Assembly (NCBI GenBank): GCA_964361785.1
Contig: CAYIBX010000002.1
Span: 21,160 to 85,159 of the forward strand
Length of the DNA: 64,000 bases
Direction: 5' to 3'
Origin: an uncultured Gammaproteobacteria bacterium
GTDB taxonomy: Bacteria; Patescibacteriota; Microgenomatia; UBA10105; UBA927
The translations under genes were made by a program, and so were the position numbers. The notes beneath the pieces are model-generated. The model made no database searches, was not told the DNA's origin, and saw only the letters and a program-made list of their open reading frames with translations. Of the stretch, positions 210 to 41,203 are shown piece after piece (within the stretch, counting starts at the first letter, position 1; each line of letters starts with the position of its first letter).

Positions 210-3200
210 GTGTCGTACATATTCTTGATTAACACATTTCTAACTACACAAAAAACATATGATCAGAAAAACACAAAAGAAGCCTCAAAATCCTCCAGCC
301 TGATCCACTTCTTTATAGATTGTTACCTTCATTATTATAATAAAGCACAATACGGGTTTGCACCAATTTTGGCAATGATCACGATTGCCATCATCGCAAG
401 TAGTATTTTTATCACTGTGCGGGTGCTCCAGACTGGTGGGATTGCTGAGATTCGAAACTTTGCGGCACAAATAAACGATGGTGGAGGAGGGGGTACTGGA
501 AGCGGCGGGGGAGGAAATGCGCGAGGAGGCGGTGGTGCGGCAAAAGAAGATCCAGATGATCCATGTGCTGGCCTTCGGGGAGCTAAAAGAAAATTGTGTT
601 TGGAAGATATAGCCATTCCTGTGACGCCAAAGCCGGCATCAAGAATTGAGATAGATGCTGCAGATCGTGAAAGAGAGAGAATAGCACTAGAAGCTAAAGC
701 TGCAGCAGCAAAAATAAGCGAGTGTACCACAGCAAATGGCATGGTTGAGTACGCGGCTTGTGTAAAAGATAGAGAAGCAGCGGCAACGGAAAAACAAGAA
801 AGAGCGTCTGCTCCCGCAGTAGATGAGGGGAGATTTGGGTGGTGCTATACCTGTAATGGTGGCAAGGGTGCGCCAGCTGCAACTTCTGATTGGGGAAATG
901 CGAGTGTAGAAATAGCAGGTACGTATATCCAAAATGGAAAGCGATATGTGTTAAATATTGCCGATACACAAAAAGCAGCTGCAGAATATGCCGGAAATAA
1001 TCCGGGAATCTTAGATCAAACCATTGCAAACACCGAGTCGTTTGGTTTGAAAGATACCGTGTTGGAAAATCAGCAAAATGCCTACCTTGCTTGTAGAAAT
1101 GCAGGAAAAACTGATGCAGTTTGTTTGCAAGAGATAACAAAAGCACTCTTGGCAGGACAAACAAACGAACTGACGTCTGCTGCAGGCCAGGAGTGGATAA
1201 AAACAATAGAGATAGAACTTGCAAAAAATAAAGCAATTGATGAGTATGCAAGGATTCAAGCTGAACTCGAATCATGTTATGAAACAAATCAAAGCTCTGG
1301 ACCGTGTACAACTCTCGCAACGAAACTTGCGACGGTAAAGACGAATTTAGTTTCTAACTACGGTTTTACTCCGAAAGATGAAAAAGCATTGCAAGTGACT
1401 ATTGCAAAAAATGATGCGATACAAACATACACACAGACGCTCGCTTCGTATTATGAATGTTTAAATACGTGTTCTGATCTGGTAAAAGCTGGTTTAGCAA
1501 AAAAAGTGTCGGAGTTGAAAGCGAGTCTTAAAACAACGTACGATTACGTCCCCTCACTAGAACAAGAAAGGGCTGCACAGAATCAATTAGTGCTAAATGA
1601 TGCGGTTACTGCATATAACGATATAGTAAAAAAGGATGCGGAATGTAAATCTCAGTTGCCAGATTATGGGCGAGGGGTTGACCCAAAGGGTATTTGTACC
1701 CATTTTGCTGTCGAGTTATCAGCGCTTCTTGATAAATACCCGACATTAACTCAAGAAGAGAAAACACTAGTCTCAGATCAAGGATTTCAGCTTCGTGAAT
1801 ATTACAGACTTTCTTCAAAAAGTACGTTGGAGGTTTGTCAGAGTACTGGTTTGACACAACAAACAGTAGATGGTAAAGGGTGTGGAGAAGAAGTGGCGAC
1901 AAAACTTCTCACGAGTGACTTAAAACGCGCGGGGTATACAGAGAAAGAAGCAGAAAAAATAGTTACAATCGACCGTCCGAAGCAATTTGTTTCGATGGTT
2001 CTTAAAGGGAGTCCCGGAAGTCAGGAGTATGTGTGTGGACTGGCTTCTGAAACGTATGCCGATCGGCAGAAATGTTCGACTGATACTACTTTTGCGAATG
2101 AACAGTTTTTATCGTATGTACAAAAAAATGATCCAGCAAATCTTTCTCAAGCAAAGACTCGTTTATTACAGTTTGATATAGCAAATACATTGCTTTATGT
2201 CCCTCCTATTGAAGGCGTGCAGGGCGCTAAAGAAGCATACGTGAAGCAGTGTAAAGACGCGCAAACCCTGCAAACTGGTGCTCTTCGATATATCAATTGT
2301 GATAAAGCAAGCATCGACACGATTTATAGCGCGATGAAGCCAATGGTGCCCAAAGAGTTGAAGCCAGAAGTATTAGCCAAATATTTACCTGATCCATTGA
2401 TACCGCAAGCGTTACGTCCTGATCAACAAGATACTGCATACGGAAAAGGTTTTAAAGACTTTGCGGCCCTTCCAGAAAACAAAGGAAAGTCACAATTTGA
2501 ACTCGCTCAATTGTTTAGTTTTCAGCAGGACAATACGTTAGCTGATCTTTGCGCTGAGCTTGACAACAATGGCTTGTGTGAACAAACAAAAGCGGATTTA
2601 CAGGCTGGAACACTATTAGCCACAGATGTACAAGATGAGTTACACCCGTTAATTCAGGGAAAAGATGGCACGAAGACCCGTATGAATACTGTCGGGCTTA
2701 CCGCATTTTGGGAAAAGACGAAATCAACGCTCACTTCACGATTCGGATATTCAAAAAGTGCAGCAGAAAATAAAGCAATTGGTGTGGCTGCGGATGTGAC
2801 GGGCCCTGACAAGGATAAAATTATTGCAAGTCTTACACAGTTTTACGATAAAAAATCAAAGTTTGAGGCAGCAGGATATTTTCGTGCCAATGACCCCGAC
2901 AGTGAAGCGATTTTTGTAGAGAAACTTAAACGAGGTGAGTTTGATGCGACGATCGAATATAACAAAATCGATGCTGGGACGAAATTGCGGGCAGTTGTTT
3001 TTTCTGATCCAAATACGTGGCTTAGCCAACGGCTCGTGTCTCAAGAATCATTAGACGAAGCCGCAGCACGCGCTTCAAGCATCTATACCAGCGAGTATCG
3101 GCGTAATAATCCTGATTTATTTGCTACGTATGTCAGTGAAGTCGCAGGTGATGCCAACTTTACGAAATTCAAAAGAAATTTACAGGCGGGAACTTCGATA

Positions 3201-6200: not shown

Positions 6201-9200
6201 GTTGCGGTAGCAGAAACGCTGGGTAAATTATCGGTTGTGGCAGATGCACTTACAAAAGAGGGGTTTCACATTGAGAGAAATGCTCAAAAACAATTAGAAC
6301 TGATTGATAATCAGATTAAGGAATCGGGAGTAGGTAGACCACCTTCAGAAGCGGCAAAACAAATGCTTGAAGAGGCGTCAAGCTTCTTGGGTAAAATCGA
6401 AGAAAATTTATCAAAAGCCACAGAAGGAAGAATTTCCGAAATGATAGGGCCAGATCATCCAACGCGCGTTGATCAATCAGAAATATTTATCAAAGCATTA
6501 TTTGACACGGAAATATCTGGTTCTGTAAAAGGAGTCTTATTCAACGGTCAGACAGGGTTAGGCAAGTCGGCATTTCTTCTTAATGCAATCGCTGATGCAA
6601 AAGTAAAGCTTACTGGTACAAAAGTAAACGTACTTGCCACCTCATGGGCTGATGTCTTGGGCATGATGAAAGATTATAGCCCACTAGTACATCACCAAAA
6701 TGGTGTAAAGGCAGTGTATTACAACCCATCAGGGGCCGAAATAATTTATGTCGACGAAGCAGGAGTACAACAGCGATTGTCAAATCATCAAAATGATGTA
6801 CTTGCCAAACAAATTCTTTCTGAAGCAGACGTTATTTATAGTCCGACGCTTGAAACTCCATATGAATTTCATGCATCCAGAAACAATGACCTTCTTACCC
6901 AAGGATTTCGGGAGGGGACAAAAGGCGCCATGCTTCTTATTGACGAGTTTGATGTGATTGCAAATAGCATGCAGTTTTCCTCCGGTGGCGATTCGCGACT
7001 GGCAGCTGATTACGATCCTATACGAACGCAAAAATATCGGGATGTTTTTGCCACAGGTCTTGCAAAAGATTTTATAGACAAAGCGATAACAGTGAAAAAT
7101 GGAGGATCTTTAGGAGAGGATCTTTTTGTACAAAAAGGGCAGAGTGTCGCTTTAGCCGATACAGATTTTGCAAAAGGGTTGTATAAAGAGTTGGTGCTTG
7201 AAGCCGCCAAACAAGCGTATGATAAAGTAAAAGCACAAGGGGAAACTCAAACAGCAGAAGAATTTTTACAAAAAAATAATATTACGCATGATGAGGCAGG
7301 TTTACCTCGTACAAATCCTCGAGATGTCCTTACCGCTCTTGAAAAATATCACCTAGGAAATGAGGCAACGAGTGAATTTAAGTTAGAATTTGGTGACAGG
7401 GCTGGAGTAGCAAACGCTATTGTGGAGACGGCGAGTAGGTCTACAAACGGATACGGATTTGATCCAAAAGGAATACTTGTGTATGGAGATGGTACTGGGA
7501 GACTTCAAAATACTCGTCCACAAGCGCTTTACGAAGCACTAGCGCTTGATACGGTTGGGCAAATGATAAAGAATTCAATACGGAACAAAACGTTTACCCA
7601 CGATCAGGCAATGGCCTTTATCGATAAAGTTACTGTTTCCCTTCAAGGAGAGTCCTCGTCGTGGAAACAGACACTTGGGATGGGTCATTATGCAGATAGA
7701 CTCTACGGATTTACCGGTACTCCAGAGAGTATTATTTTGGATGCACAACTATCTCTAGATATGCAGCTTGTGGTTCCTGGAGCAAAAAAACTTACGTCTA
7801 TTATTCAAATTTTTGGATCAGAGACGATAAAACCTATAAAGAATTCGGAATGGTTTGGGGCAAAAGATGTAGATAACGCGCCTATTACGTTGGGGAAAGA
7901 GGGTGTAGCTCGAATTGTCCTCGAGATGCCTGAATATACAAAAGATGTAACTTTAAAAAGCCTTCAAAAGAAGGTAAATGCATTAGGGGAAGACGTGGAG
8001 TTGATTGTAGTAAACAACGATACAAATATTGCTGAAAATGAAAAAGTAATTATTTACGATCAAGATCATACTATTAAGCGAACAATTGTTGGAGACAATG
8101 AAAAAACAGCAATACAACGATTTGAAGAAGAGTACGCCTATAAAAATAGAGGAACAAAGAGATTTGTTATGATTTTTGATCAAGGGTCTGGAAGAGGAAC
8201 TGATATTCAAGGTGTATTTACACCTACTGATGCGTCATACCTTTTTGGAAGTTCAAAAACGCTTACCCAAACATCCGCAGCCCAAGGCATTGGACGATTT
8301 CGAGAAATTCCAGATACAACCACTGTGTATTTATTTGATGGGCAAGCGGCAGATGGGTTGACAAGAATTCCTTTAGAAGACGCAACAGTTCGGCTTCTTA
8401 CCAACGAAACAGCGAGTACGCAAATCTCAATTACGAATAGTTTGATTCATGGTTATAGCGACATGGTCAAAAACACGATTGATTCGTTGGCGAGTATGGC
8501 AAAGCAGTATGGTGCGGATGATTTTACGATGACGTATGAAGGAAGAGAGATGTCTCTTTCTGATGGACTTAAATTACAATTTGATAAGGTGGGCGGGGTA
8601 AATGATGCACTCACAGAGTCTTCTCAAATAGGCACTGTGGCAATTCAAAAAGCTGCGACACGTGCTCGCGATTTTATAAATAGTATTCGTTCAACGCCTG
8701 AATTTGCTAAATTGCCGATTGAAGTTCGTGAGTATTACCTAAAAAATATTTATAACTATGAAGATGTCCCAATAGCGCTTCAAGCTGGATCACCCACAGA
8801 GTCTACGGTACGGCCAAGTTTGCAGGGAGCGACACGAATTACCGATAGAACAGCGCTTATCAATCAGGCGATATTTGAATCAGATATCGCAGCCACCATT
8901 GGTCGAGAGGGTCGCCAGACACCCACATCGTCCACGCGAGAACAACTTGCACAGATTGAGCGTGCAGCATCTTCAAGAAGCGAGGAAAGTGTAGCGGTTG
9001 CGACAAACGCAATTTCTGAAGCAAAATCAGTAATTGATAGACTTCTTACTGGCAAATCAATTACAAGCGAACAAAGACACATTGTAGCACTTGCCCAACA
9101 AGAACGAGCGAGGCTCGTAGTGCGACAACAGGCATTGGTAGTTCAGAAGTCTTCTGCGCCTCCAGATTCATCTGAATTAGAACAATTGAATACACAAATA

Positions 9201-12200
9201 GCTCAAATTGAAACAATTCTTGCTCCCATAGCAAATAGTACTGACGCGCAAATTATCGATGTGCTGAAAACGGACGCAATGAAACGTTTGAAAGCTTCAC
9301 TTACCAAATCAGGAATACAAAATGTCGATACGTTAAGTGAAGCACAATTAAATATTGCTGTAGCTGCTATGGTTACATATGAAAATGCTGTATCGCTTCG
9401 TACAGGACTTATAGCCACGAATGCACAAAGTGAACAGGCAAAAGTTGCTATCGAAGAACAAACAAAAACAGAAAGAGAAGCATTCACTAAAGCGCTTGAT
9501 GCAATACTTCTTTCATCTGGAGTGACAGCGAAGAATCTTACTTTTGAACGTGCACGATCTGACATGAGTGTCATCACGAATGCACGTGTATCGGAAACAG
9601 TCTTATTTACTGATGGACGACGAGTCCTTATTACTGATGAAGCACAGAAACAGGCGCTTATAAAAGAAAAGCAAGGCGTTATTACAGCGCCACTTTTTAG
9701 TAGTCTGGAAGATGCATCGTTTCAAAAAATTATTGCGTATCAGCAAGAGCGATTGTTGCAGGTATCCAAAGCAACACAGTCAAATAGAATACAAGTATTT
9801 GGACAGTTTGTTGTGAAAAATTGGCAATCGTTTCAGCAGGCATTTCTTCCGCGCTGGGCATCTGTCGTGAATCTATCCCAATTTGGACAAAATCAGACGA
9901 TAAATAATCTCGCTTCCGCAATAAATGCAAAAGATTATATGACTGCGTATGCAATGTTTAATACATTGCGAACAAATGCCAAGAAAAATCCTGATGTATT
10001 TGAAAATGCAGATAGTCTGATGCGCGCTGATGCCGCAGCTCGTTTGAGTATTGTGCTAAACGGCGCAGTAATAAGCCCAAGCGTGACAGAAGTTGAAAAT
10101 ATAGTGTTGTATGAAGCGAGTGCGATTGCGTTTGCACAAAAAGCTTTAAAGAACACCAAAGTGATTGATTATCAAACATTCTTTGAGGCTGCATTTGAGG
10201 ATGATTCTGTGCGTACATCACTTGTAGAAGCGGAAAAGGCATTTGACGCACTTTCTCTTCCACAAGGTATTACGCGGGATAGTTATAACAATGGGTTACG
10301 AGAGGCGATTGATCCAATCATGAATTCTGTATATGCAGTGTTAAAACTTGATGAAAAAATTGCAGCGCGAGATGGGAAGCGATCCACAGTGTCTCAATCT
10401 GGTTCTGTCGATATAAATGTGATTATCACCGGCATCTCTGCATCAGATTATTTAAACGCGTTTTTAGCAATCGACACGCTTGTGGCGGCTGGGGACACAA
10501 CTGGGCGCGACCGAATATCGCAAGCGATACGGGATGATATTAGGGAACGATTAGTGGCACAACAAGTCCCAAGTCCGTCTGAGGAATTAATCACTACCAT
10601 TTTTGATTACCAAAAAGCAGTAGCCAAGAGAGCGTCGGTATGGAAACAAAGCCCGCTTCCGAGTCCAGCGGCGGGGGCAGCGCCAAAAGATTTGTTTAGA
10701 GAGTTTGTAGAAAACGATCCAGAAGTGTTGGCTTCAAAAATAAAGGCTCTTGAGTTATTAAAGGTGGAATTTACTGAATCAAAAGCAGAAGCACTATTTT
10801 TGAGTATCACTGAACCAATTATCGCTTCTACCCGCATTGCAATGGAAAATCGACAACCAAATATTCAAAACGTGACAGGACAAGCTGTACAGCCTGTTCA
10901 ATCTTCCCATCAACCTCGTTTAGAGCCAAATGGGTGGGTGAAATTTGGAAATGTAATTAAGGCAATTATTGCACCGAATGTTTATGCAATTTATGCTAAA
11001 CGTTATTCAACACCTGAATTAACCTTTGCGATCGCAAGCATTATTCCACGATATGCAGCGCCGATAGTGTTTATGGGGCCTGCTGGTATACCGATTTCTC
11101 TTGGAATTGCAGTGTATGATATTGCGCGGACAGCGTTGGAATTACCTTTTTATATAATCGCACATTGGCCGAGAGTGCAGAGTTTCTTTTTGGGAGACAT
11201 ACATATTCTGGATGGATATCCACGTTTGAAAAAATTTGTCGATTGGGTGGTACCGAAAGATGCGCAACAACTAGTGGTAAACGTGTTGGCGGATAGTCGG
11301 GAAGGATATCTTGAGAGTTTAGTAAACGCGACGATGTTTGATGCAGGAAATCCACAGTGGACACCATTAACTTGGTTTACGAGCATATTTACACATACAA
11401 TCACAAGGATTCGCCGTCCCTATTTGTTAGGGTGGGATATATATAGAGCAGAGCGACGGTATGTAGAAGGGGTGACAGGGAAAACTGCAAAGCTTATAGA
11501 CGCCGGATATGAAAAGCCTGACTACTGGAACAGAGGTGGACGCATGTTTGGTCTAGCACCAAGGCGGTTGATCAATGCGACGCCGACGAATGATTCACTT
11601 ATTTGGTGGACAACTCGCGGGCCAGCGATAGTTCTTCTAATTGCCGGAATTGCGACGTGGTGGATACCAGGAGCACCGCTTGTTATTGGTTTAGCAGCGA
11701 CTATTTTAGGTCTGACAACGGGTCCATTTTGGCATTATGATGCACATCGATTCTTTTATGGCGATGGATGGAAAAGTTTGGGATACGCAGCTACATATAA
11801 TCCTCTCGATTGGAAATGGTTGCCACCTCCTGAAATTGCACCTGTTCAAGCACCTTCACAACCAATGCAACAGGTTGCTACTCCTGTCGTCCAACCAACA
11901 CCTGCTCGCGTTAGTTGGACTCGTCGAACGGATGGATTATTTCAGTTTATCAATGCTACACCACAGGGGAGTTGGAGGAAATATTTTGGATCGCGAGCAA
12001 TAGTGATACTTTCACCAGCACCGATACCATCATTGTCATTTTATACAACCAGCGTTATCGCTCGTGCAGCATTTGTAGGAGTATATGACGGATTCCGTTT
12101 GATTCGGTATGTATGGGAAAGTACAAGAAAACCAGTGCAACAGACATCCGTTATTGCTCCCACAGCCCAAGCTCCAGTTGCAGTGACACCGATAGATTTG

Positions 12201-27200: not shown

Positions 27201-30200
27201 TTACCAACAGGTACCGGCAAAACTTATGCTACAGCGTTTGTAGGACTTATGGAGTCGCTTCGGGGACGTCCAGTATTGGTTAGTTCTGCAAATGCTGACT
27301 TGGCAGAGCGAGATCTGAAAAATGTATCAGATTTGTTTACTGCATTTGGAGTGGTTTCGGGAGTAGCAGGCAAAGGACAATATTTAAATCTTCAAGTTCA
27401 AATCACCTATGGTAAATTATCTGATCTAGTTTCATCGTACTCACAGGCATTGCGGCAAGGGATAGACATTCCGATAGCTCAATATGTGTTGATACCTGAT
27501 GAGGGTGATAAGAGTTTACTTCAAGAAGCATTAACTCCCATTGTTATGTCTGAAAGTTTTGGAGATCAAGCAAAGATTACAGATGGAGAAGGGCGACTGC
27601 TCGTTTCTCTCGCCAGAAAAATGCGTAATTGGTCAGGTGATGAATTATATTTGGAAACGGAAATTTCTGATAAGCGGTTGTCTGCCTTGACCCCAAGGGC
27701 TATTGAAGAATTAGCCATGTTGAAGCCGGATTCGCTCAATCAAGATGAATTTAACAGGTATGTTGAATTTGCCAGACAGGCGACGCTTATGACAGAAGGT
27801 ATAGATTATCTTTATGATCCTTATACAGAGGAAATTACCCTTTTGGATAGCGAACAGATGTCTGACTTGGATAAAAAGTTTGAGTCGTCGCTTCAACATG
27901 CGTTGGAAGTCAAACATGGGAGAGCGCATAATTTTTCGGATGTTCATGATGTAGTTGTCGACAAACATACGACGATGGCATTTGTACGACAAGTTGGTAA
28001 AGTGATTGTGTTTACAGCGACAGCATTTGATGAAATAAAAGAATTGGACACATATTATGAACTAGACCTTGCATCAATACCAAGTCCACTTTTGATATCT
28101 CTTGCTAAACAGAACACAGAAGATTCACTTCGATTAGTGCAGTTTTTCCATGCTGAAAGTAACCAGTGGATCTACGCCATTGCACAACGGCAGAATAATA
28201 CATGGGTATTAATTGAAAAAAATCGTGTGGATTATGCACCGAGATTTTTTGTAACTGACGATGCAAAAAAAGAAGGAGTTCTACAAGATGTGAAAGACAT
28301 TCAAACAAATAATCAAGCGGTACTTATTGCAGCGAAAAACGAGGGGTATATGGAAACGCTTGCTGAGGCGATTCCTAATGCGTTAGTCATATCGGAACGT
28401 AATCAATCAAAAAAACAAGAAAGCATACTACAGGCATCAGGTAGTCGTTCAGTCGCTATTGGGACAGCAAACATTGGACGTGGTATTAACTTTCAACCAA
28501 GTCAGGCTTTGCAGGAAGCTGGTGGATTTTTTGGCATGATTACCAGCATTTTAAAGCCAAGCACCTTGTCACAAGTGCGTGGTCGTGTCGCTCGATTAAC
28601 AGTACCTCAGCTTGATTCTTTGTCGTTGCGCGCGTGGGGTGCAACGCGGCAATACCTTTCATTAACTGATCTAAAGGAAGTTCTTGGTAAAAACGACCCT
28701 CGGATATTACGGTTAGAGTATCCTTCTGGCGAAATATTGCCAACAGATAAACGATATAACACGCTTCTTTCATTGCTTACAGAAGCGGAACAAAAGCTTC
28801 AGCAGCAGGAAAAAGTTGCTCGTGATTCTCAGTTTCATCTTGACCATACGTCAGATCGTATTACGTCAACCAAGCGCGCTTTGGCACTCTCTGGATTTGG
28901 CGCTGCTCGTCAGACATACGATTGGATGTTGCGTCGGTTAGCTCAGTTACCAAATCAGAGTCAGGCAGCAGTATATCGAGAACAGATAGAAGCAGCATGG
29001 AAACAGTACTTGCTTGATCTTGAGTACTTGAAGACCACCGCATGGTTAGGAGTGATGGAGGAAAAAATTGAATTTGATGTGTTCTATCAGAAAGAGTCAG
29101 CGAGTTTGTTGCGTCAGATGATTACGACACTTTCTCAAGAAGTACCGGTAGAAGTCTTAACGCCGACTATAAGTATATTAGAAAACGATACTTGTGCAGG
29201 ATCACGTGGAAATTGTGTAGCTGAGGCTCTATTAACTGAGCGTGCTATCGATTCAATTCTTACCAGTAATCTTTCTGTGGTGGATAAAAGTAACTTGCTT
29301 GATGGGTATATCCCAAGTAAGGAAGCAATGCCAGCTCATCAATACGCACAGCATGTAGCTATGCTTGAGCTTGCAAAAACTCAAATTAATCCAAAGATGG
29401 GACAAAAGGCGTCTCAAATAGTGACCTCTGCGATGCAGTATATCAATGCAATACTCGATGGGAATATTACTGTTGCTGATAGGGATGTAACAACAGCTGT
29501 AAAGAAGCGAATGCAAAATATTATAAATGCATTGCAACTGAAGGTGGATTTTGAATCTAAAAATGCAAAAATACGAATAGTAATTACCACTGAGCAACCA
29601 CCTGATCGATTTGCAGCTATCCGTGCTTGGATGCCAGCGCCAGAGACAATTCTTCAAAATCCATTTTTGAAATGGGCGACGCCATTTTTTGCGAGACTTG
29701 GATTGGGTGTCGTACCTCCTTCAAGAGATAATAGTGAAGCTCGAATTGTGATTGATCAGCAGCAACTTTCATCAGGAGCTGATTCAAATACAATAGCACA
29801 ACTTAGTTTGGATGATTTTTTGAAACAGTTCTCTACTATTTCACAGTTGTCATTACAAGGAAAGCGTTTTGAACTTACTGGTCAAATAAGCGTAGAGTCA
29901 CTTATTCGTTTACACACAGAATTATCGTATGAAGCTACCGTATTACTTCTTAAAGACGGGAGACGCATATTGATTGTCGGTAACGAAGAATTTGCAGCTA
30001 AAGAGACGTCTGTAGATAGTTTACTTACAGAATTCGGTGAAGATCAGATAGTTTTGAAGCTTCATTCACATATCGATACAGATCATACACCTATATCTAT
30101 AGGAGATCTTGTCGCGTATGAAGAAATTTTTGGAACACATGTTGTTATCAATGATGATGGCATCATGACATACGCAGTTCCAAACGAGGCCAAGAACGAA

Positions 30201-33200
30201 GACATGAGAGATTATGCTATGGAATTAGTGCAACAAGCGCTTACCAAACAAGGAAGTGGGCTTACAGCATTTAATTTATTATTTGACGACACTTTAGAAT
30301 TTACGAGATTACTAATTATTGAATTACCTAGGGGTAGTTATCAAGAGGATAGTAACGCTGTTATTGAGTTATTTAATAGAAATACTCGAGGAATTAATGA
30401 GCAAAGTGGGGTAAATAAGGAGCAAATCCAATCCGCCGCAGAACAGGTCATGGATACGGTAGAAAAAGTTGCTGAAGTTACCGATCCAACCAAAGACAGT
30501 TGCACCAATTGTCTCAAATTTGCCCACGATTTGCGAGTGTTTCTGGAGAAAGCGTTAAACAAGGATACGCCCGCACGTGAGAAGAGAGAAGCTCTTCAGA
30601 GTGCAAAGAATCTTGTTGACCAACATAACAATGCCAAAAATAGAATTGTGTTAGAAACAGAAGATGCTCTGGCGGAGGTGACAGAGGGAGAGTTGGTTGG
30701 TACAAAAGAAGAATGGGAACAGGCGATTTCAGCAATTGATGAAGCGCTTTCAGAAATTACCAAAGGGTATGATGCGCAATCCGCAGAAGCAAAGGCGATG
30801 CTTACTGCGTTGAAGACGGATTTAGAAAAGTTATTGGGTGCTATCCGTTTTGCGATTATTGCCTCTCCAGCCCCAACTAACAAACTCAATAGTAATAACA
30901 TCAAAGCTCTGAAACTTTCCAATCCTATTTTGAGGTCTGATGGGGATTATCGACAAGCGGCAACTGTAATAGCAAAAGATATCGTAGCGTTTCTCTCTGA
31001 GCTCAAAATCAATTCAGTAGATACAAGTAATAGTCCAGACATTGCGACCTTCATCACTGAGAGGGTAACGCGAGCGGGTATTTCATCAACAGGCGTACAA
31101 TCAACATTTAACGATTTCTTAAGCGACGCCATTCTCGTTGAAGCTGCTAGGCAAGGACTAAATGTAGCGGTTGTTACTGATATACCCCATGAAAACAAAA
31201 AAATCAGAGCAAGAATATCTACTAAGTTCAAACCAAATCTCATAACAACAATCACGAGTGCTTTCAAGAAACTATTGTTAGGCCAGCAACCCACTGAATC
31301 CACTCCCTCATTCTTCCTTCAGCTTTCGTTTGGTTCTACGGGTTCCGAGACACAAGATTTTCAAAAGAATACTTGGTTTTATAACGAATTTTTACATCAG
31401 ATTAAAATTTTCAACCCAGAAAGCTCTCAGATTGAGTATTCCTATTATTCCGGTGAAGTCAATGAGCCAAATCTTGGAGCACCATTAGAGGGTATAGTTG
31501 CAGCTATTCGTAATTGGGCTACGTCATTTTTTGGGAGATTTGGATTGGGTGTTACATCTTCTTTAGAAGATACTGGCGTTCCTCGCATTGTTATTGATGC
31601 AGAGCAGGGGATAGTACTAGAATCACCAATAAAACCAAAAAATCTCCTTTCGGAGATTTTGGTACGCCTAGCAGGTTTGCGTATTGACTGGTCTGATAAC
31701 CTAACGAAAAGGTTACCATTTATCTCACCGTTTGTCAAGTTTTTGGGTGTGGACTCGCCGAGAGTTGAACTCGGTAGACTTGGGTTATCAGACCAGTCTA
31801 GCAAACCTGCCGAGCCCACACCAAAATTAAGTATAGCACAGCAATTCCTCAACGCCATTTTGCCCGCCAATGCACCATGGGCGCGGCCAATACGCGCCTT
31901 TCTTGGCAGGTTCTCACCAAGCTTTTTGACACCACCTCCTCCGGCTATACCGGAACCCACAGGCTTGTCTCCACCATTCTCAGAAAATGATTCGTTCCGT
32001 ATTCAGCAGCGGGAATCCGTGGCAGCGACTATTGTACAGGCATTTCTTACCTTTACCGGCAGGAGCCCTGCTGATCCGTTGGCAAACACATTCAAAACAC
32101 TTCTTTTGGGTGATCCTGCGGTTCTCACACTGTTTACCGAACATTTTTTTGATCCATTACATCAAAAGTCGTTGCCTCCGCTTACCCGCGATATGTTTGA
32201 CAAAAAAGCCTTAGCACAGTTGTCTGATCCCGATATTTGGTTAGCAGAGATGAATACAGCAGGACAAACGCCACAGATGACCTATCGATCTCAAGTATGG
32301 TTACTGTTGGAAGCACTCGGTTGGCGAGTGCTCAGGGTAGATGATGTCCAAGAACTTTATAACGCCAATAATACCGCCAAAAACGTACGAGATCAGCATA
32401 CGATAGGCGATCATCTTCTCAAAATGATTATGGGGATATTTGATAAAGCACGAGACACGATAGATGACGGATCCCGTCAGTATGCGTATCTTCGTGTCAC
32501 GGGGGACAAATATGCCATCATCGTACGGGATATAAACGCGGTAAAAAATGCATCCAACCCTTTGGCACAAGCGTTTGATACGTTGCTGTCTAATCAAAAG
32601 ATGTTGTATCAAAAGGATCGTATAGTATCACTCCCGATAGGACTTCATACATCATTTGAAGAAGAGCTTAGTCTAGAAGATCTGACTCGCATTGACAGGC
32701 AGAAATTTATGCAGGCAGCAAAAAATCAGAAACCGTATACAGGAGAGCAGCTTCAAAATTATCGAAAGACGCACCCTAGGCTCAATGCTATTTTAGACTC
32801 TATTGATACATTAGACACAAATGATGAAGGATTTAAAACGTTTTTGACACAGGTGGTGGCGACGCTGATGGTAGATGATCTGCTTGAGGATACAGCTAAC
32901 GATGTGCAGTCGGCATTGCAGAAAGAAAATCCCGATGAAACACTTCGTGTGTTTCCTGATGTCGCTAGTGTCATTGAGACGGTGCGTACAACCAAAGGCT
33001 ACGGGAATGCGGTGCGCATGTTGCGAGTCGGATTTGCGGGAGTCTTAAAGCATGTCAATACAGATTTTGAAAAAACTCTGGGAGATGCGGCTGGCGATGA
33101 GCTGATTAAGAACCAGTTTCGCCCTGTTGTCGAGTATGTGACGCGGGAGATCCTCCGAAAGACGGGGATCACGGCACAAATCGTATTTCATCCATCGGCT

Positions 33201-36200
33201 AATGATTTTATCATCATGCTGCCGCAAGGTACTCTGGTCGATATCGGAGTGCTCCGTACCGCGTTAGTAAACGCGCTCAATGATCTTTCTATTGGGGGTG
33301 TTTCGTATTATTCTCATCCTTCTTTGTCTATAACAGATGTAGTATTTACAGATGTGGGGTCGCCTTTGGAGCAAGAGGCGGAAAATTTTGTACGTATAGA
33401 TAACGCGTTTGCAGTGCTGGGGGAAGCATCTAATCAAGACGCGCTGAGTTCTATAGATACTCATTTCTATCTAAATGGATTGCCGCAGCAGGGTTTGCCC
33501 GTGCACCATTGGGACTGGCTGAGACGCTATCTTTCTACCAATGTCGTATTAGAAAAGCGCGGACCAATTCGATTGGCAGAATTAGGGGTTACGGAAAAGG
33601 AACGATTGAAACTAGTATCAATTGAGCCAGAAAATAAGTTTGAAAAAGACGAAGATGTGTTAGCCGCCGCAGCATGGCAGAAATCGATCGGTGGATTTGT
33701 AGAGAGGTATGCCAAAAAAGATTTGCCTTGGTGGCAGAGGGCGTTGAAGTGGGTGAGTGATCGCATACCAACTCGGGGTGCTCCAGCCACACCGATACCA
33801 GGTCAAGCGGTGGTGCAGTTATTAGCACCATTTGCAGGTGGTGATCATTTTATAGATTTGCCTCGTGTTCAATCAGCTATTTTTCATCCAACCAGTGCGT
33901 CGCAAGGCACATATGTTCTTGCTTTAGCATCAGGCGAAACTGCGACAGTGAACGGAGTTGCATTATCTTTAAGTGAGCGCATGGAGCTCAATGATCTTGA
34001 TGAAATCTTGATAACAAGAGGTGACTTGCGAGTTCGAGGTGTAATATTTTTCTTTGGACCGTTGGAACCATTGTTTATCCAAACCAGAATTCCAGTACTT
34101 GATGAGACCAAAGAGAAGCAGTTTCCAAGAGAGCAAATAGAGCAACAGTGGAAGCTCATAACTGAAGCAATAAAGAGAAGAATACCGGAAAATCCCCAAT
34201 TACAAAAAGTTATGTTAGCTTTTGAAGCTCGACCTGTAAGTGAAACCATGCCGCTCGAGATGATTCAGGCTGCTGCAAGCGTGGATCAATTAATCCAACA
34301 ACTGTACACGAGATATACGTCTACACTTGTTGCTTATTTATCATTATCGAAAGTACCGAGTGAGGTTATTGGTTTGGACTTACACAAAGCGCCAATTTTA
34401 GAAAACATGTCGTGGTATCGAGAAAAGGATACATGGTCGTACATACTCCATGAGGCAATAAAAATCGATCCTGAGCTCGCATCAGTATTTAAACCATCTC
34501 AATCATACGTTATCGCCAGTTGGTTTATGAATCCGACGAAATATTTGTTACCGACCGTTGATAACCCGAATATCGACGTTGAGCAGTTGTTGTTGGCAAA
34601 TGAGACAATTAAACGGGGGACGGCGTTATTTACCTCAGATACATGGAGGCAGTTACGGGATAGCATTGACTACCATGAAGCAACAACAAAATCAGAGGAG
34701 TTGATGGGATTGGATCCGTTTGAGTTTCATATGATAGCGCAGCGGTATCGCTTTGCTCGGGAAGTAAAATTATTAGCACTTTCTGCAGAATTAAACACTC
34801 AGGCCTCCGATATAGCTCCTGGAAAACCCACACGCCTTTTAAGCGGTGTTGAGGTTACTCTTATAGATGCTTTGCTTTCCAAATCAGTTGATTTTTTGAA
34901 TCCACAAGTATGGGAGGGAAAAACATTAATGAGTTCTAGCAACGATAGAATTTATCGGATTACCGTTGCAGGCCGAGAGTATTTGCTTAAGGAACAGCGT
35001 AGCGCAATGCATCAGAACAGGATTCTTCAGGGTCCGTTCATGGATCGCAATACCAGTCAAATAGAGTTTGAGACGGCTGAGTATATGCGCGAACATGCTG
35101 TAGGCGAGTATGGAGATATCCACGTTAATTGGGAGAGTCCTGTAGGGTTTGTGACATTCCCTGATGGGTACCAATTTGCGGTATTTTTGTATGAGAAAAA
35201 TTTGGAATCACCTGTTACCGATTTTGTCGGTATTCGCAATATGGAAAATAGTAGAGTAAGTGAAATCTATTTGAGAGAGGAAGATACCATTAAGAAATTG
35301 GGCGACGTAATTGTCGCACATCGTGAGCAATTTGAGGGTGAGTTTCAAGCAAGTATTGAGGGATTATCAGAGGAGATAACATTTGCAGACTTTGCAAAGT
35401 CAAAGGCACGATTGATGTACGAGGACGCTGTTCTTTTGATGGAGTTTCTTCCTATTTCTCAAGGGTATTACGTAGGCGATCTTGACGGGTATGATTTTCG
35501 TATCGTTACCAATCCGCGTGTAGCGCTCGAAGTGGTTGGATTTGATTTTGAGATATTTTATCGTTTTGATGGAGAGAAAATGCCAATTGGGTGGGATTAT
35601 CGTACTCAGGAATATATGTATGAGTCCAGAACACAGAAAGAATATTTACAATCATATCTGGATAATTTTGTGACATATAGAAACGGAAGAATATCTGCGG
35701 GGCTATCAAAGAATCTTGATGATGGTGGATCACGCGCTGTATACAAAGTGCTCGTGCAAAAGGATCAAACACAGATGGACATGATCTCTGAAGTGGAGCA
35801 GATGATTAAAGAGCAATCTACTCCTGCCCGTTCTGGTCCGCGACGATTTAGTATCACAGAAGAAAACAAATTACCAGAACTCATCGTCACAAATCCATCG
35901 AGAAATGCATGGTATGAGGAGGTCATGCAAAGAGTAAAAAAATGGTGGGGAGATCGGCAAATTTTATATCTCATACCACCACAACTACAGCCATTTGTTG
36001 GTTCATCTGATGATTCAAATAAGGGAAATGCTGCAAATATAAAGAAGCCTATCACAACAGGGATGCGTTCGGCTATATCTTTCATAGACCAATTATCCCA
36101 ACAACAGCAAGGGAAGGTACAGACAATTCTACAGAGTCGTGAATTTTTTGATTCAGTATTAGTAGGAAAGAGTAATGCTGGAGAATACCTTCAAAAGAAA

Positions 36201-39200
36201 ATTCAACTACTTGTGGGATCACAGCTTACTGTAGGAGAGATTGATGAAATCATTGCGTCCATCCTACAGGAGTATCAAATAGGATGGCGAGTACAACGAA
36301 GGATTCAGGAAGTCCAATCTGGATTGTACCAGCCATATTCACAAGTTGTTTTCAAACAAAAACCTTTTCGACTACTCATAACATACGATTCAAATAATAT
36401 AGATGAGATAAAAAACGGAACGACGCAACAGAAGGAATTTACGTTGCCAGAAGAGTTTATACGTACTGTTCGTCAACGAGGGTATAGTATAGCCTCGGCA
36501 ATGATGATACCGAAGAAAAATGGCGGACTCATGACGGACGTAAGTCAAATTATTGCTGGGATAGCAGCGGCATTGGATGATGCAGATAGTTCATTGGGGA
36601 ATGATCAACGAAGTGTATTAAATATATTGAGTGTAAATGGAGATAATGCTGGCGGGCAAGTATCTCCACTGGTGCAAGATTTTTTTCAAGCTGGGGGTCG
36701 CCCTGAAGATTTACCTCGTTTGTTTACACATCTTCTCGCACTTAACTACAGCCGATATGAAATGTATAAAGATTTTTGGGAACCCGTATTAGCAATGTAT
36801 AACAACACTATTTTACCCACGTTACGTACAAAGGTAGGGGATCAAGCGAAAGGGTTTGATGATGTAACACCGGATAGTATATTTTGGTCGGAATATGAAG
36901 ATCGTATAGGAGTGCTTGGGTCTTATGGCGTTTCATTTGATCTCAAAAATGCTGGTACGTCATATTTTTCGATTTCACCCCAACTTTCTCGTTTAGGAAG
37001 TAATATTGCTACAGTTAGTCATTTTGATAACTCCTCTCAATATCAAACGGTACGAGATGGGCGAATACCTTCTGCCGAAAGAAATATGGCGTTAGGCGTG
37101 TTGATGCATGAGCATATACACGAACAACGCCGACACGAACTAGGAACCATATCGATTCCAATTGGTGATGCGCAAGCTGTCGGTATTTTAGAAGCTCTTA
37201 CCGAGGATGAACAGGTGCGATTAACGGATGAGGTTTATGCTATACATCCAGAGATTTATGGTGCATATGCACGATCTTCCACATACGAAGATGAGCGTGC
37301 TATTAACTCAAAATTTACAGAACTATTTTATATACCAACATCCGTTCAGGAAACATATGCGCGTGCACAAGACCCTATAGGATATATCCAATATATGGAT
37401 CAGCGATTGCATAGCTTGACTCAAGAAGAATATAACAGCTTTATTACACGTCTCTATACTCGTATTCAGATAGGACCGCTACAACGAGATCTACTACTAC
37501 AAAAGCGTGCCGAATCTATCCTTGATATTCGCGAAATGGTAGTAGCTTGGCAAGGATCTTTTTTGCAAAATGTTCAAAATTTGCAAGATATGCAGGATAT
37601 ATCTGGCATTCCGATATCTATAGCAAAGACACAAGATGGTTTGTCACACTGGTGGGAACAAGAGCACTTAGAAGCGCTTATTGAAAACGGATATTTACCC
37701 CAGATTTATTATAGCCAAACATGGGCAGGAAAATACTTGATGAATTTCCAAAAATTAGAAGAGCAAGGACAAATATCTCCGCCTTGGTGGCAGCGGGTAT
37801 GGGGCAATGTGAAAAAATGGTGGGGAGATCAGCAGGTGTTATATCTTGTGCCTCCGCAGTTGCAACCGCTTGATGGTTCATCAAATAGTTTTAATCAGAG
37901 AGGTTCAAATACTATGACTACAATTGAACTCGCCGATGAAGCACCAGTAGCGCACATGCAGCAGTTGTTTCGTAACGACGCCAGTCGTGATTGGCGGGGA
38001 ATTACTGATTTTGATATTCGAAATATTACGGATGGGTCTTCCCGAGCGTATATTGCGAAAGATATGCAAAGTAATCCTGTGGGACTGGCAATTGTGAATG
38101 TTTCACTCGGAAATCCTGACGTACAAGGACAGGTTGCATTATCTGAACTAGCTGTACTTCCAACTGCGCAAGATACTGGGATTGGGACTCAGCTCGTTTT
38201 ACATATACAAACTATTTATCCGTCTATACGATTGCAAATAGGAGAAAATTTGGGTATTCCGAAAGATATTCAGGCGGTTGAAAACACTTCGCGTAATTAT
38301 TTGATACAACAAGCTGAACGGCTACGTTCGTTTTATGAAAATCTTGGTTTTCGAGAAGTTCCTAATTCAATAGGCGGTATGGTTTGGGATGCAACGCAAA
38401 AAACATGGCTCCAAACCCTCGTGACATCAGATTTTCTCGAGTCTTTGCGTCCTGCATTGGAGCAAAAATTAGATGGGAAACCAATCACCATAGATGATTG
38501 GGTAGCGGCAGTGGAGGGGACGAAGGAGTATCAGGCACTTCTTACCAATAGCCCTAATGTAGATGAAATTTCACTTCATGAATATCTTCTCCCCGTACTC
38601 AAAGAACGACAGGAAGTACTTTATGAAAATAATTCCAAAAAAATTCATCAAATTTCGAATGTAAATTCATTATCAGATATATTTGATCAGTTGAAGCTGA
38701 TGGTAGACAAAATTGTCGCAGTGTATGTATTCGAGATTTCAAATATAGCGACGTACGTGGTGGGTAAAGTTTTTGATGAAATAGGATCAGGTTATTTTCA
38801 GGCAATGGAAAACACGCCGCGTTTTGGGCAATTCATGGATTGGTATAGTGGTTGGTTGCACGGTATACCAAATTTCTTTATTCCTGGAATATTTTATTTT
38901 TGGTATCTTTCTAGTTTTGCAGGAGCATTATGGTTTTTGGCATTGGTGACGTTCATTCAAAGAGCTGTGAGAGGATTTGATATAAGAATTTTAACGATTC
39001 AAGAAAAAATATTTGAGAATGGTTTGTCAATACTAGCGATGCTTATTGGAGGTATGTATATTGAATGGCATTCGCATGGAGAAGTTATTGAAGGTATATT
39101 TTTAGATAAAAATGACTGGGGTCAATATATAGCGGCAATTCTTGTCTTTGTGGTAACTCCGTATATATATTCAATATTTCAATCAAAGGGATGGTCTATA

Positions 39201-40616
39201 AAAAATGGCCTTAAAGCGCTGTGGCGATGGGTGCGTAGCAAATGGCGGGGGATGACGATGCTTCTTTTGGCCGGCGTGCTGGCTGGAGCGGTGGCGATGC
39301 AGAGTATAGCTGTGCGAAAAACAAATGAACAGAATACTATAATGCCGTACCAAAATGTACAGGTCATTCATGTAAACCTCTTGGAGAAAACAGCCTATCC
39401 ATTTGCACAGAATATAGCGATTCATCTTAAAGATTTGTCAAACACTATGGAAAATCAGTGTCTAGTCGGGATACCAACGGGTCGTGTGTTTGCCGTAGAA
39501 TTAAACAGTGCTTCTGTTATGTCCGTTGGCGCTTTGTGTGGTATATCCCAAGCCTTGTCTCCTCAAGTGGCCGCTGCCGGATCATGGGTAGGCTCGTATG
39601 GATATTTTATGCCAAACCGTACAGCTGGTCTTTATGCGAACAATTTACTTCAGGGGTTAGATTGGGAATATGGTTATAAAACACTTCTCGGTTGGCTCCC
39701 AAATATTCCTCCACCGACACCTGATACAGCAGCAGCCACAGCATTTACTGAGGTATACTGTTCAGCTGACGGGGATTCAACATCAGTGTACCGAAAAGAA
39801 ATAGATTTGGATCGAAGTATTCGGGGGATAAAACCATCCGGCACAGTCAACGTTGAATTAGTGAAAACCTGTTCAAATGGATGCGCGCGCGGTGCCTGTT
39901 TAGAACCACCTGCAGGAAGCGCATGCAAAGAAGGAGAAGTCTACTTAAGGGCTGATTCGAAGTGTTTTGTCACATGCACAAACGGCGTTTTGGTTTCCGG
40001 AAGCACATGTGATCATGTCGATGTACTTTCGAGCAACAACATGCTCTTTGCTCAAACACATCAGGCGCTCTCGCAATTACCACCAGAGATGTTTGAAGGA
40101 ATAAGAGTGCCATATCTAATTAATTCTACGCGGTTTAATTCGTATGATCACGGTCAATATTCTTATAAGGACTGTATGGATCTTTTTATCGGTGATTTAC
40201 CATGTTATCCATATGCAGAAGTCCGACTTGGTCTCTCAAAAAGCCCATATGATCCCTATTGGAAATTTCGGTATGTTGCTGTTCATGAATTTTTTCATAT
40301 ATGGAGTGAATCACAATACCAAACAAATTATGCAGCGTTTGAACGGTATGTAAAAAAGACAGGATGTTCTAGGTCTTTGGACGACTCTTTTGTGTATGGG
40401 GAGGGGTTTGCGCCTGTAACTGGATATAATACGAATCCGATGCATATTCCTTGTGGGGAGGATTTTGCAGATACAGCAGCTTGGTATGTGGATTTATCCT
40501 GTGAATTGCGTAATCGTTCAGAAGAAGTAAATCAATCACAGGATCGATACGAATTTATGCGCGAGGAGGTGTTTGGCGGTAAAGAATATCTACCCCCTGA
40601 AGGGTGTTCAAAATAA
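210..40616 (+). CDS. Giant multidomain membrane-anchored protein (about 13,468 aa). It has an N-terminal signal-anchor helix, coiled-coil regions, two SecA-like / SF2 P-loop ATPase modules, a protein-kinase-like module, two GNAT-like modules, a transglutaminase-like module, several TM clusters and a C-terminal Cys-rich HExxH module
   Basis: A single open frame of 40,407 nt with no stop in roughly 40% GC DNA, which cannot plausibly arise by chance. The track start is GTG at 210, and an alternative in-frame ATG at 375 ([15 protein letters not shown]...) lies directly before the first hydrophobic helix. Codon usage appears uniform throughout. Recognisable motifs are listed in the findings. Confidence 0.85.
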   Translation: [13468 protein letters not shown]

Positions 40617-40626
40617 ATCTGAAAAT

Positions 40627-40656
40627 CTATGAATACTTTGAAAGAAGTATTCATAG
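40627..40656. terminator. Perfect 11-bp-stem hairpin (CTATGAATACT-ttgaaaga-AGTATTCATAG) between the convergent giant gene and the toxin gene. Candidate bidirectional terminator
   Basis: The inverted repeat read directly in the sequence at 40627-40637 and 40646-40656. It lies 10 nt after the giant-gene stop and about 40 nt after the toxin stop on the other strand. On the minus-strand side it is followed by a T-rich tract (reverse complement of 40610-40626). Confidence 0.4.
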
Positions 40657-40696
40657 AGAACGCAGAAGACGATAGATGGATTTACTGGTTGAGCGA

Positions 40697-40957
40697 TTAA
40701 TACGCCTCATCATGTGAGCCGATGTCGAGAAGATAGCATGTGTCTTTATCTCGGTGAAATACTATCCGAATGGATTGATCGATAGAAATCGCATGTTCAT
40801 TTTCTCGATTGGATAGTTTGTGAAGACGAAGTTGTGGATGAAACGGAGATTCTTGTAGAAGTTCGAGTCTACGAGTGATAAGAGAATAATAATCAGGACG
40901 GCTTTTTATAAATTTACCAAGCGCGCGAATATATCTAGGTGTCGCAACAATTTTCAT
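40697..40957 (-). CDS. Type II toxin of the RelE/ParE/YafQ superfamily (mRNA interferase-like)
   Basis: An 86-aa protein. Its C-terminal half, LHKLSNRENEHAISIDQSIRIVFHRDKDTCYLLDIGSHDEAY, matches the RelE/YafQ pattern (H.L.g...r.c.I..d.rliy......l.L...G.H...Y). It sits 3 nt downstream of a small RHH gene, the classic antitoxin-toxin order. Confidence 0.65.
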   Translation of the reverse strand: MKIVATPRYIRALGKFIKSRPDYYSLITRRLELLQESPFHPQLRLHKLSNRENEHAISIDQSIRIVFHRDKDTCYLLDIGSHDEAY

Positions 40958-40960
40958 GTG

Positions 40961-41203
40961 TCATTTTGGTTTGAATTGAGCCATGAATGTATGAATATCT
41001 TTTTTTGTACGTAATACTGTTCCTCGTCCCGCTTTATAATCTGCTTTTGCCTCAGCTACCATGCGATCGAGTTTGTGATCACGAAGAATCTGACGTAATG
41101 CAGTACGAGCTAGATCGCTAAACGACGCATAGTGCCCATCTGCAATAGCTGCATCAGCTTCTTTTTTGAGAACGTCTGGAAGAGAAATGTTTATAGTAGT
41201 CAT
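40961..41203 (-). CDS. Ribbon-helix-helix (ParD/CopG-like) antitoxin. The probable start is the internal Met (MTTINISLPDVL...); the track ORF extends to 41221
   Basis: A beta-strand followed by a helix, INISLPDVLKKEADAAIADGHYASFSDLARTALRQIL, typical of RHH antitoxins. It is an 80-86 aa protein immediately upstream (3 nt gap) of the RelE-like toxin. Confidence 0.55.
   Translation of the reverse strand: MTTINISLPDVLKKEADAAIADGHYASFSDLARTALRQILRDHKLDRMVAEAKADYKAGRGTVLRTKKDIHTFMAQFKPK

Follow-up and report, generated by a model that had tools for sequence, protein, structure and literature searches.

Does a reading frame that stays open for 40.4 kb represent one gene, and what kind of protein would it encode? 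The question is raised by a 64,000-nt stretch of DNA, referred to here as the window, from contig CAYIBX010000002.1 of GenBank assembly GCA_964361785.1 (positions 21,160–85,159), in which an earlier note had described a single giant open reading frame (ORF) for a membrane-anchored protein. Our analysis supports, with high confidence, a real, single and native ORF for a multi-pass membrane protein in which a SecA-type ATPase is embedded. The fuller reading, which we consider narrowly probable, is that of a genuine chromosomal gene from the Candidate Phyla Radiation (CPR), whose multi-pass product of ~13,400 amino acids (aa) would use its SecA motor to export its own ends and would serve in host interaction.

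Integrity and origin of the giant gene

The frame is uninterrupted as first described: the terminal TAA is the sole stop in the translation, and the window contains no N. Because stops are expected at ~0.067 per codon, a rate estimated from base composition, the chance of 13,468 open codons is p ~ e^-900 and a chance origin of the ORF is excluded. Consistent with a selected coding sequence, as had been claimed, the ORF frame scored best of the six frames in 26/26 consecutive 1.5-kb windows under a codon-usage model trained on 16 neighbouring genes. The GC content is even along the window (~0.41). Tandem Repeats Finder, applied to 41 kb, returned one trivial 41-nt array and no other tandem repeats, and therefore nothing in the sequence would promote misassembly.

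Separate assemblies bear directly on whether the frame joins unrelated genes. Over 21.8 kb, the window matches the ENA contig Hain_H43_02um_R3_53 (89,160 bp; Hainich groundwater, Germany) at 100% identity; window position 1 corresponds to position 22,973 of this contig, on which the giant gene is called uninterrupted, with a product of 13,413 aa. The Logan contig ERR3858135_52043 (49,442 bp, from another run) is also identical, with the gene open for at least 13,288 aa to the contig end, and four more similar places were reported on other contigs. An assembly chimera, or the foreign insertion of phage or plasmid DNA, might be suspected from a short-read metagenome assembly at ~9x coverage and from the assemblies that are interrupted within the gene (L013 and L014). 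Nevertheless, the shared gene portions of these assemblies show zero single-nucleotide polymorphisms, the sequence is identical across separate assemblies and assemblers, and collinear giant homologues are present elsewhere. Even GC, host-like codon usage and searches for related foreign DNA (tblastn on phages and plasmids, SecA-level matches only; viral contigs, no relative) further argue against an insertion. Since the separate assemblies agree, two of them with an uninterrupted gene, and repeats are lacking, a chimera or frameshift in the giant gene is very unlikely; assembly chimera and mobile-element cargo were both rejected, and we regard this alternative as extremely improbable.

The suspected ambiguity of the start codon, GTG 210 or ATG 375, is real. 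Public gene calls take ATG 375, which yields the 13,413-aa product and places the signal anchor at the extreme N-terminus. ATG starts all but one of 18 neighbouring genes, none of the 19 neighbouring gene starts (41154–63849) has a Shine–Dalgarno motif, and a −35/−10-like pair lies upstream of ATG 375 (Table 1); for these reasons ATG 375 appears more likely than GTG 210. Several neighbour ATGs (45243, 48971, 49034, 58056 and 41203) also have a TATAAT-like box only 5–12 nt upstream; the mRNAs of those genes may therefore be leaderless or have very short leaders.

Proteins of this size had been described as known mainly from symbiotic or uncultivated lineages, and homologues of the neighbouring genes point to the CPR, an uncultivated and probably symbiotic lineage. 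A neighbouring family 2 glycosyltransferase (GT2) has hundreds of homologues at 60–87% identity, and those carrying names (65–74% identity) all belong to Patescibacteria group bacterium or Candidatus Gottesmanbacteria; the closest named homologue of the giant protein likewise comes from a Patescibacteria group bacterium. Furthermore, each 2-kb segment of positions 1–64000 has a positive GC skew (0.03–0.26; cumulative 4.4) independently of gene strand, and Microgenomates genomes are described as having a pronounced whole-chromosome strand asymmetry of GC skew (PMC7143001). Judged by neighbour homology, not by marker genes, the organism is a CPR bacterium near Gottesmanbacteria, probably of the Microgenomatia. 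No tRNA and no Rfam family was found in the window.

A SecA-like motor within a conserved core

The central part of the giant protein carries a SecA-like translocation motor (Table 1). The SecA_DEAD family of Pfam matches aa 8,937–9,278 above its gathering score (E 2e-14 to 4e-15), and a SecA P-loop match follows at aa 9,338–9,428. In a 69-sequence alignment of canonical SecA/SecA2, the relatives and the giant protein, the Walker A (G-GK), DExD box, GRG and QxxGRxxR motifs are invariant. AlphaFold2 modelled aa 8,880–9,720 from this alignment with a pLDDT of 82.9 and a pTM of 0.83, a SecA-like shape that is partly imposed by an alignment of mostly canonical SecA. The best PDB matches of the model in Foldseek are all SecA or SecA2, headed by 6itc_A, a substrate-engaged SecA–SecY structure (TM-score 0.67/0.73, 854 columns), with helicases ~20 orders of magnitude behind. 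In the model, a PPXD-sized insert sits between the two halves of NBD1; it holds 'SLQHALEVKHG', the canonical SecA counterpart of which we take to be 'GLHQAIEAKEG'. The helix pair of the motor ends in 'AAWKQYLLDLEYLKTT...FYQKES', which MAFFT places on the W..HL of the SecA scaffold, and the relative L018 shows a weak SecA_SW Pfam match at the scaffold end (E 0.007). Together, the motifs and the model indicate that aa ~8,880–9,720 form a near-complete SecA-like module with intact ATPase motifs.

The same stretch also gives weak Pfam matches to DEAD, Helicase_C and ResIII, and the NCBIfam SecA models score 57–71 bits against cutoffs of 725–1,100. In addition, the AlphaFold2 model has a reduced wing domain or none. 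These features would suit generic superfamily 2 (SF2) ATPases, that is, helicases or remodelling motors, in a protein that is mostly a cytoplasmic, membrane-tethered enzyme scaffold. By comparison, SecA/SecA2 are the best matches both by sequence and by fold (E 1e-28 versus 1e-8 for helicases), the PPXD-sized insert and the scaffold-end motif 'W..YL...' are kept, and the module is conserved beside a transmembrane (TM) hairpin. We therefore consider generic SF2 ATPases quite unlikely and retain the SecA-like assignment.

Our comparison with canonical SecA/SecA2 reveals shared NBD1, PPXD, NBD2 and helical scaffold, invariant catalytic motifs and the fold match to 6itc. There are also differences. 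Sequence identity is ~17–24%, the scores stay below one-tenth of the NCBIfam cutoffs, and both wing domain and C-terminal tail are lacking or reduced. Moreover, the motor sits inside a 13.4-kaa (thousand aa) membrane protein, at residue ~8,900, whereas canonical SecA proteins are soluble and ~800–900 aa long.

The motor belongs to a family core. When aa 8,701–9,900 were compared by HMMER with 1.84 billion cluster representatives, one strong match and two more family members emerged; all else was at SecA level, and these non-family matches, long or canonical, score alike (≤78 bits), with no special affinity to long proteins. A comparison with giant genes of related genomes, which had been proposed at the outset, yielded four relatives (P0142, P0145, P0181/L017 and L018), two of which can be shown to be Patescibacteria or lie on contigs of CPR size, and three sharing a ~3,000-aa core at 47–51% identity. 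This core consists of the TM hairpin, ~1,250 aa without domain assignment and then the motor, whereas the N- and C-terminal modules vary among the relatives.

P0142 (MCL4200211.1; 7,694 aa, a fragment on a 26.7-kb contig) is 47.5% identical over aa 6,768–9,835 of the giant protein, and its C-terminal ~260 aa match the C-terminus of the latter. P0145 (7,844 aa; 701.7-kb contig) shares the N-terminal anchor and the pattern of Cys pairs and carries a SecA-like module at its end. L018, from the JGI/ENA metagenome scan, lies on a 1,172,001-bp contig; it is 47.6% identical to the core, and its frame is open through all 23,372 nt examined (at least 7,790 codons). P0181/L017 (GCA_964422945.1) is 50.7% identical over aa 7,658–9,561, and its apparent split into two genes is a 10-N scaffold gap. 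On the same contig, a second very large ORF (12778–18072; at least 1,765 aa, with an N-terminal TM helix, cut by the contig end) begins 120 nt past the giant-gene homologue with a hairpin between them, an arrangement that points to tandem giant genes.

The giant-protein family is rare in public data. None of the 185,579 GTDB species representatives contains a relative of the giant protein, and therefore neither the genome of the window nor those of its relatives are among these representatives. A homologue search with an 801-aa SecA-like query found canonical SecA only, a weak negative, as its index appears blind to very long proteins: neither the giant protein itself nor P0142 was returned, although the collection contains both.

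A second, highly divergent ATPase of SecA/SF2 type is probable, though tentative, at aa ~2,100–2,740. The spacing of its motifs is SecA-like, and hhalign aligned it with the 69-sequence SecA profile at a probability of 65.6% (E 5.8e-5) over the NBD2 part only. The assignment is tentative because this profile comparison alone favours it: no Pfam, PDB or phmmer match was obtained, and sequence-level tests against SecA and P0145 were negative.

Topology, additional modules and the proposed export in cis

Five hydrophobic clusters, with about 7–10 helices, were recognized by two hydropathy scales. The signal anchor, with the core 'MITIAIIASSIFITV' (aa 56–70), is present as the earlier note had read it, and so are the Gly-rich linker that it placed near 478–540 and its three further clusters of TM helices (Table 1). 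The C-terminal TM cluster contains a strongly basic loop (aa 12,994–13,011), presumed cytoplasmic. Cysteines are distributed very unevenly: of the 55, 30 form strict C-x(2-16)-C pairs (aa 119–1,492), 16 fall at aa 13,084–13,466 and only 8 in the 11,500 aa between the ends; P0145 and P0142 show a like distribution. Because the cysteines cluster at the ends and ATP- or acetyl-CoA-dependent modules lie between them, the pattern fits N- and C-terminal regions that are disulfide-bonded and exported and a middle that is largely cytoplasmic. The proposal of a giant cell-surface protein accordingly needs division. Its surface part stands for the Cys-paired N-terminal ~1,500 aa and the C-terminal ~400 aa, which look exported, whereas the ATP- and acetyl-CoA-dependent modules imply a large cytoplasmic part. 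The last ~250 aa are conserved in P0142 (26–30% identity), which has HEVMH nearby; the C-terminal Cys-rich domain gave no family or PDB match.

Table 1. Features of the giant gene and its flanks (window coordinates; residues numbered from GTG 210)
Feature	Position	Strand	Details
Giant ORF	210..40616	+	13,468 codons from GTG 210; TAA stop at 40614-40616
Promoter-like TTTATA-18-TATAAT	312..341	+	consensus match; 34 nt upstream of ATG 375
N-terminal signal-anchor TM helix	357..425	+	aa 50-72; Kyte-Doolittle peak 2.43, Hessa dG -0.6
Gly-rich linker	474..542	+	aa 89-111
Cys-pair region	564..4685	+	helix-loop-helix modules, ~61-aa period at first; presumed exported and disulfide-stapled
Second divergent SecA/SF2-like ATPase (tentative)	6507..8429	+	aa ~2,100-2,740; Walker A GQTGLGKS at 2116, LLIDEFD at ~2243, GRGTDI at ~2615
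Hydrophobic cluster 2	11019..11723	+	aa 3,604-3,838; two to four TM segments
Protein-kinase-like module	18759..19280	+	aa 6,184-6,357; G-loop IGGGAEGVVY, AAK, DPK, DVG
Conserved family core	20511..29714	+	aa 6,768-9,835; 47-51% identical in P0142, L018, L017
Conserved TM hairpin	22995..23159	+	aa 7,596-7,650; kept in P0142
VanW-like weak stretch	24672..24926	+	aa 8,155-8,239; Pfam E 0.008-0.06, under gathering score
Invariant Cys8630/His8670/Asp8678	26097..26243	+	alignment columns C973, H1013, D1021
Central SecA-like translocation motor	26847..29369	+	aa 8,880-9,720; NBD1, PPXD-sized insert, NBD2, scaffold helix, two-helix-finger-like pair
Two degenerate GGDEF/nucleotidyl-cyclase-like modules	32277..33269	+	aa ~10,690-11,020; motif reads TGDKY
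GNAT acetyltransferase-like module	38043..38357	+	aa 12,612-12,716; Acetyltransf_7 E 3e-5, 24.7 bits vs gathering score 27
C-terminal TM cluster	38874..39320	+	aa 12,889-13,037; three to four helices
C-terminal Cys-rich domain	39327..40613	+	16 Cys; HEFFH at aa 13,359; presumed exported
13-bp perfect inverted repeat	40626..40657	.	terminator-like hairpin right behind the stop, common to the convergent genes

The modules between the ends are heterogeneous, and the interspersed enzyme-like modules anticipated earlier were detected as SecA-like, kinase-like, GGDEF-like and GNAT stretches. The kinase-like stretch matches the NCBIfam model PrkT (E 2.4e-5, 23.5 bits, far under its cutoff), and the weak VanW-like match occurs in both members scanned. 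The GGDEF-like modules were recognized by alignment to GGDEY-bearing modules of P0142; in L018, a GGDEF Pfam match reaches 24.4 bits against a gathering score of 23.8, and a GNAT match also exceeds its gathering score. Three HExxH motifs (aa 4,305, 12,300 and 13,359) compare with ~0.1 expected, an estimate from composition. The invariant Cys8630/His8670/Asp8678 are a possible papain/transglutaminase-like triad, an unverified lead; the region gave no family match when the core profile was compared with Pfam and PDB nor, again as a weak negative, in the homologue search, and the core and C-terminal-domain profiles produced nothing significant in PDB and Pfam besides SecA.

By analogy and from indirect sequence features, we propose, as a possibility somewhat short of probable, a motor that moves the Cys-paired ends of its own protein out through SecYEG, a cytoplasmic, regulatory middle, and exposed parts with an action on a host. 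The N-terminal signal anchor would insert the protein into the cytoplasmic membrane, and the disulfide-stapled helical repeats (about aa 73–1,500) and the C-terminal Cys-rich HExxH domain (about aa 13,040–13,468) would be exported. The middle, with its two ATPases and its kinase-like, GGDEF-like and GNAT modules, would remain mostly cytoplasmic, with re-entrant TM hairpins at intervals. Docked on SecYEG, the tethered SecA-like motor would power export in cis, either of the huge exposed segments of its own chain or of partner proteins, and the kinase-like, GGDEF-like and GNAT modules may regulate or modify this export. Because a CPR bacterium is expected to be episymbiotic, the exposed ends may attach to, or attack, the host cell.

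Several points weigh against this proposal, in addition to the partly imposed shape of the motor model. About 95% of the giant protein is without a family match in full-length Pfam, NCBIfam and PDB sequence searches, and no kinase-like, VanW-like, GNAT or GGDEF-like call in the giant protein itself reaches its curated threshold. The AlphaFold2 model of core aa 7,658–8,790, from a 2-sequence alignment, has a pLDDT of 31.7 and offers no usable structure. The TM counts per cluster, based on hydropathy scales, are uncertain, and in/out parity is consequently not fixed; the ATPase at aa 2,100–2,740 needs an unproven membrane crossing near aa 1,230–1,510. Here, within the Cys-pair region, the giant protein has weakly hydrophobic A/G/S/T-rich segments, and the segments found at the corresponding position in P0145 are clearly hydrophobic. 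The C-terminal HExxH motifs of the giant protein and P0142 are not column-aligned in the MAFFT alignment. Finally, we infer the step of export in cis purely, and the role in host interaction is argued from the CPR lifestyle only.

The main rival to a single working chain is a polyprotein or fused operon, in which a precursor or internal starts are combined with embedded proteases that cut the product into independent proteins. The non-repetitive sequence of heterogeneous modules, the excess of HExxH motifs together with the invariant Cys/His/Asp, and the variation of modules outside the core would all agree with it. Furthermore, the P0145 record stops right after its SecA-like module and P0181 stops 2,251 aa after its own, with a different tail; W-rich linker-like motifs repeat at module borders; and processing has been proposed for Omnitrophota giants too (bioRxiv 10.1101/2023.11.21.568195). 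However, neither cleavage sites nor a protease family came to light in profile searches of the core and C-terminal domain against Pfam and PDB, the seeming division of L017 is the gap artefact described above, and 40 kb of open frame argues that continuous translation matters. We judge polyprotein processing unlikely, though to be taken seriously; it is compatible with a membrane-tethered export motor and does not exclude one.

The W-rich motifs form two pairs. One, '..W(W/Y)..V...VKKWWGD.Q.LYL.PPQLQP', occurs at aa 11,896–11,955 and 12,521–12,580 (35895–36074 and 37770–37949), and the other, 'IR.W......F(F)(A/G)R.GLGV', at aa 9,800–9,844 and 10,426–10,470 (29607–29741 and 31485–31619). The latter is kept in the relatives, with a weak copy at the true C-terminus of P0181. 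These motifs may lie where modules meet or where processing takes place.

A classical giant repetitive adhesin or S-layer-type protein, with dedicated export and glycosylation by the neighbouring genes, would account for the N-terminal anchor and for the helical repeats with paired Cys in the first ~1,500 aa, and CPR epibionts typically have large surface proteins (PMC13059738). The adjoining glycosylation island reported previously is indeed there: positions 41–64 kb are rich in such genes, encoding an NPCBM protein, a dTDP-sugar epimerase-like protein, a methyltransferase, YfhO, two PMT_2 proteins (GT-C/PMT_2), two GT2 enzymes and a hexapeptide transferase. In conflict with an adhesin, self-BLAST found essentially no internal repeats past the N-terminus, its three short pairs being a degenerate ~61-aa N-terminal repeat (aa 331–450 versus 392–513) and the two W-rich pairs. 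No Ig, cadherin, RTX or other adhesin Pfam match was obtained, the protein has internal TM clusters and several modules that depend on ATP or CoA, and the glycosylation genes are convergent to the giant gene or on the other strand, not co-oriented with it. A repetitive adhesin is thus largely refuted by self-BLAST, Tandem Repeats Finder and the absence of adhesin domains in Pfam, and we hold it highly improbable; from adjacency alone, we infer that the giant protein may be linked to glycosylation. The kilobases of coiled-coil-like, Ala/Glu/Lys/Gln-rich sequence claimed in the earlier note did not hold up, as these residues average 27%, reach 30–36% over the first 2,000 aa and exceed 40% in one 250-aa window only (6,751–7,000).

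Other observations concern the flanks and minor matches. ORFs of 86, 80 and 751–760 aa without Pfam match (40697–41203 and 41154–43436, minus strand) are convergent to the 3' end of the giant gene; the end of the 760-aa ORF, on whose start the assemblies differ, is overlapped by the ORF of 80 aa. Just past the window end, a Fic-domain protein of 401 aa (L001, 5996–6957) follows a TPR protein downstream of the glycosylation cluster. Within the giant protein, DUF922 matches weakly at 17886–18212 (aa 5,893–6,001; E 0.008, 16.7 bits against a gathering score of 27), and a beta-lactamase-like stretch (E 0.67) is an unverified lead. A nonribosomal peptide or polyketide megasynthase was discarded, with no condensation, adenylation, ketosynthase, acyltransferase or carrier match in Pfam or NCBIfam.

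Comparison with other giant proteins

Giant genes with many TM regions are commonest in Omnitrophota and also occur in Actinobacteriota; they carry a divergent SecA DEAD and preprotein-binding region without scaffold and wing, for which export in cis was proposed (West-Roberts et al., bioRxiv 10.1101/2023.11.21.568195). A catalogue of 916 such Omnitrophota proteins includes a PF07517 architecture cluster (Nielsen & Lui, bioRxiv 10.64898/2026.06.07.730766). The protein described here resembles the giants of Omnitrophota (Archaeovorin-type and Dockerin-type) and Actinobacteriota in its length of >10,000 aa, mostly dark to Pfam, and in its several TM clusters, its very divergent embedded SecA DEAD and apparent preprotein-binding region and its modules of GNAT and GGDEF type. 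A further likeness lies in the organism, which is ultra-small and probably host-dependent and has a small genome, and in the proposed logic of self-export. By comparison, its phylum is Patescibacteria, and those surveys do not name CPR for >10,000-aa proteins. Under the published size classes ('large', ≥10,000 aa; 'giant', ≥30,000 aa; bioRxiv 10.1101/2023.11.21.568195), its 13.4 kaa make it 'large', not 'giant'. No sequence relation to those giants is detectable past the SecA domain, and only three family members outscored canonical SecA in HMMER. The scaffold and two-helix-finger part appears retained here, in contrast to the description of those motors, and a second motor is probable. Also unlike those giants, no type II secretion Pfam match and no dockerin/TSP3 content was found in the window, where the giant gene has glycosylation genes beside it.

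SPEARE-type giant proteins of DPANN nanohaloarchaea are likewise oversized proteins of ultra-small episymbionts with presumed host contact. Among CPR epibionts, the surface proteins of Absconditicoccaceae (>1,500 aa; PMC13059738) are similar as oversized membrane or surface proteins with presumed host contact. The proteins of both groups are several-fold smaller, have recognizable adhesion domains and are not reported to contain SecA-like motors. The largest CPR proteins in PMC13059738 and PMC7143001 measure about 1,500–2,200 aa. That the present proteins form a rare CPR family of 8 to >13 kaa, with one or two near-complete membrane-tethered SecA motors, which arose independently of the Omnitrophota giants, is possible but at present rather doubtful.

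Giant genes that encode a SecA-like domain, described mainly in Omnitrophota and also in Actinobacteriota, are with this locus found in the CPR as well, and the locus offers a compact, non-repetitive and fully assembled case for testing export in cis, with a near-complete motor and intact motifs. Public annotation overlooks such genes, as illustrated by P0142, labelled 'GNAT family N-acetyltransferase' in NCBI from a ~90-aa domain alone. If the genome measures ~1 Mb (compare the 1.17-Mb contig of L018), the giant gene would occupy ~4% of it, and such a share of a reduced genome in one gene implies a strong selective benefit. Should the independent origin and the self-export both hold true, unrelated ultra-small episymbionts would have arrived by convergence at self-exporting surface machines of a 'SecA-in-cis' kind.

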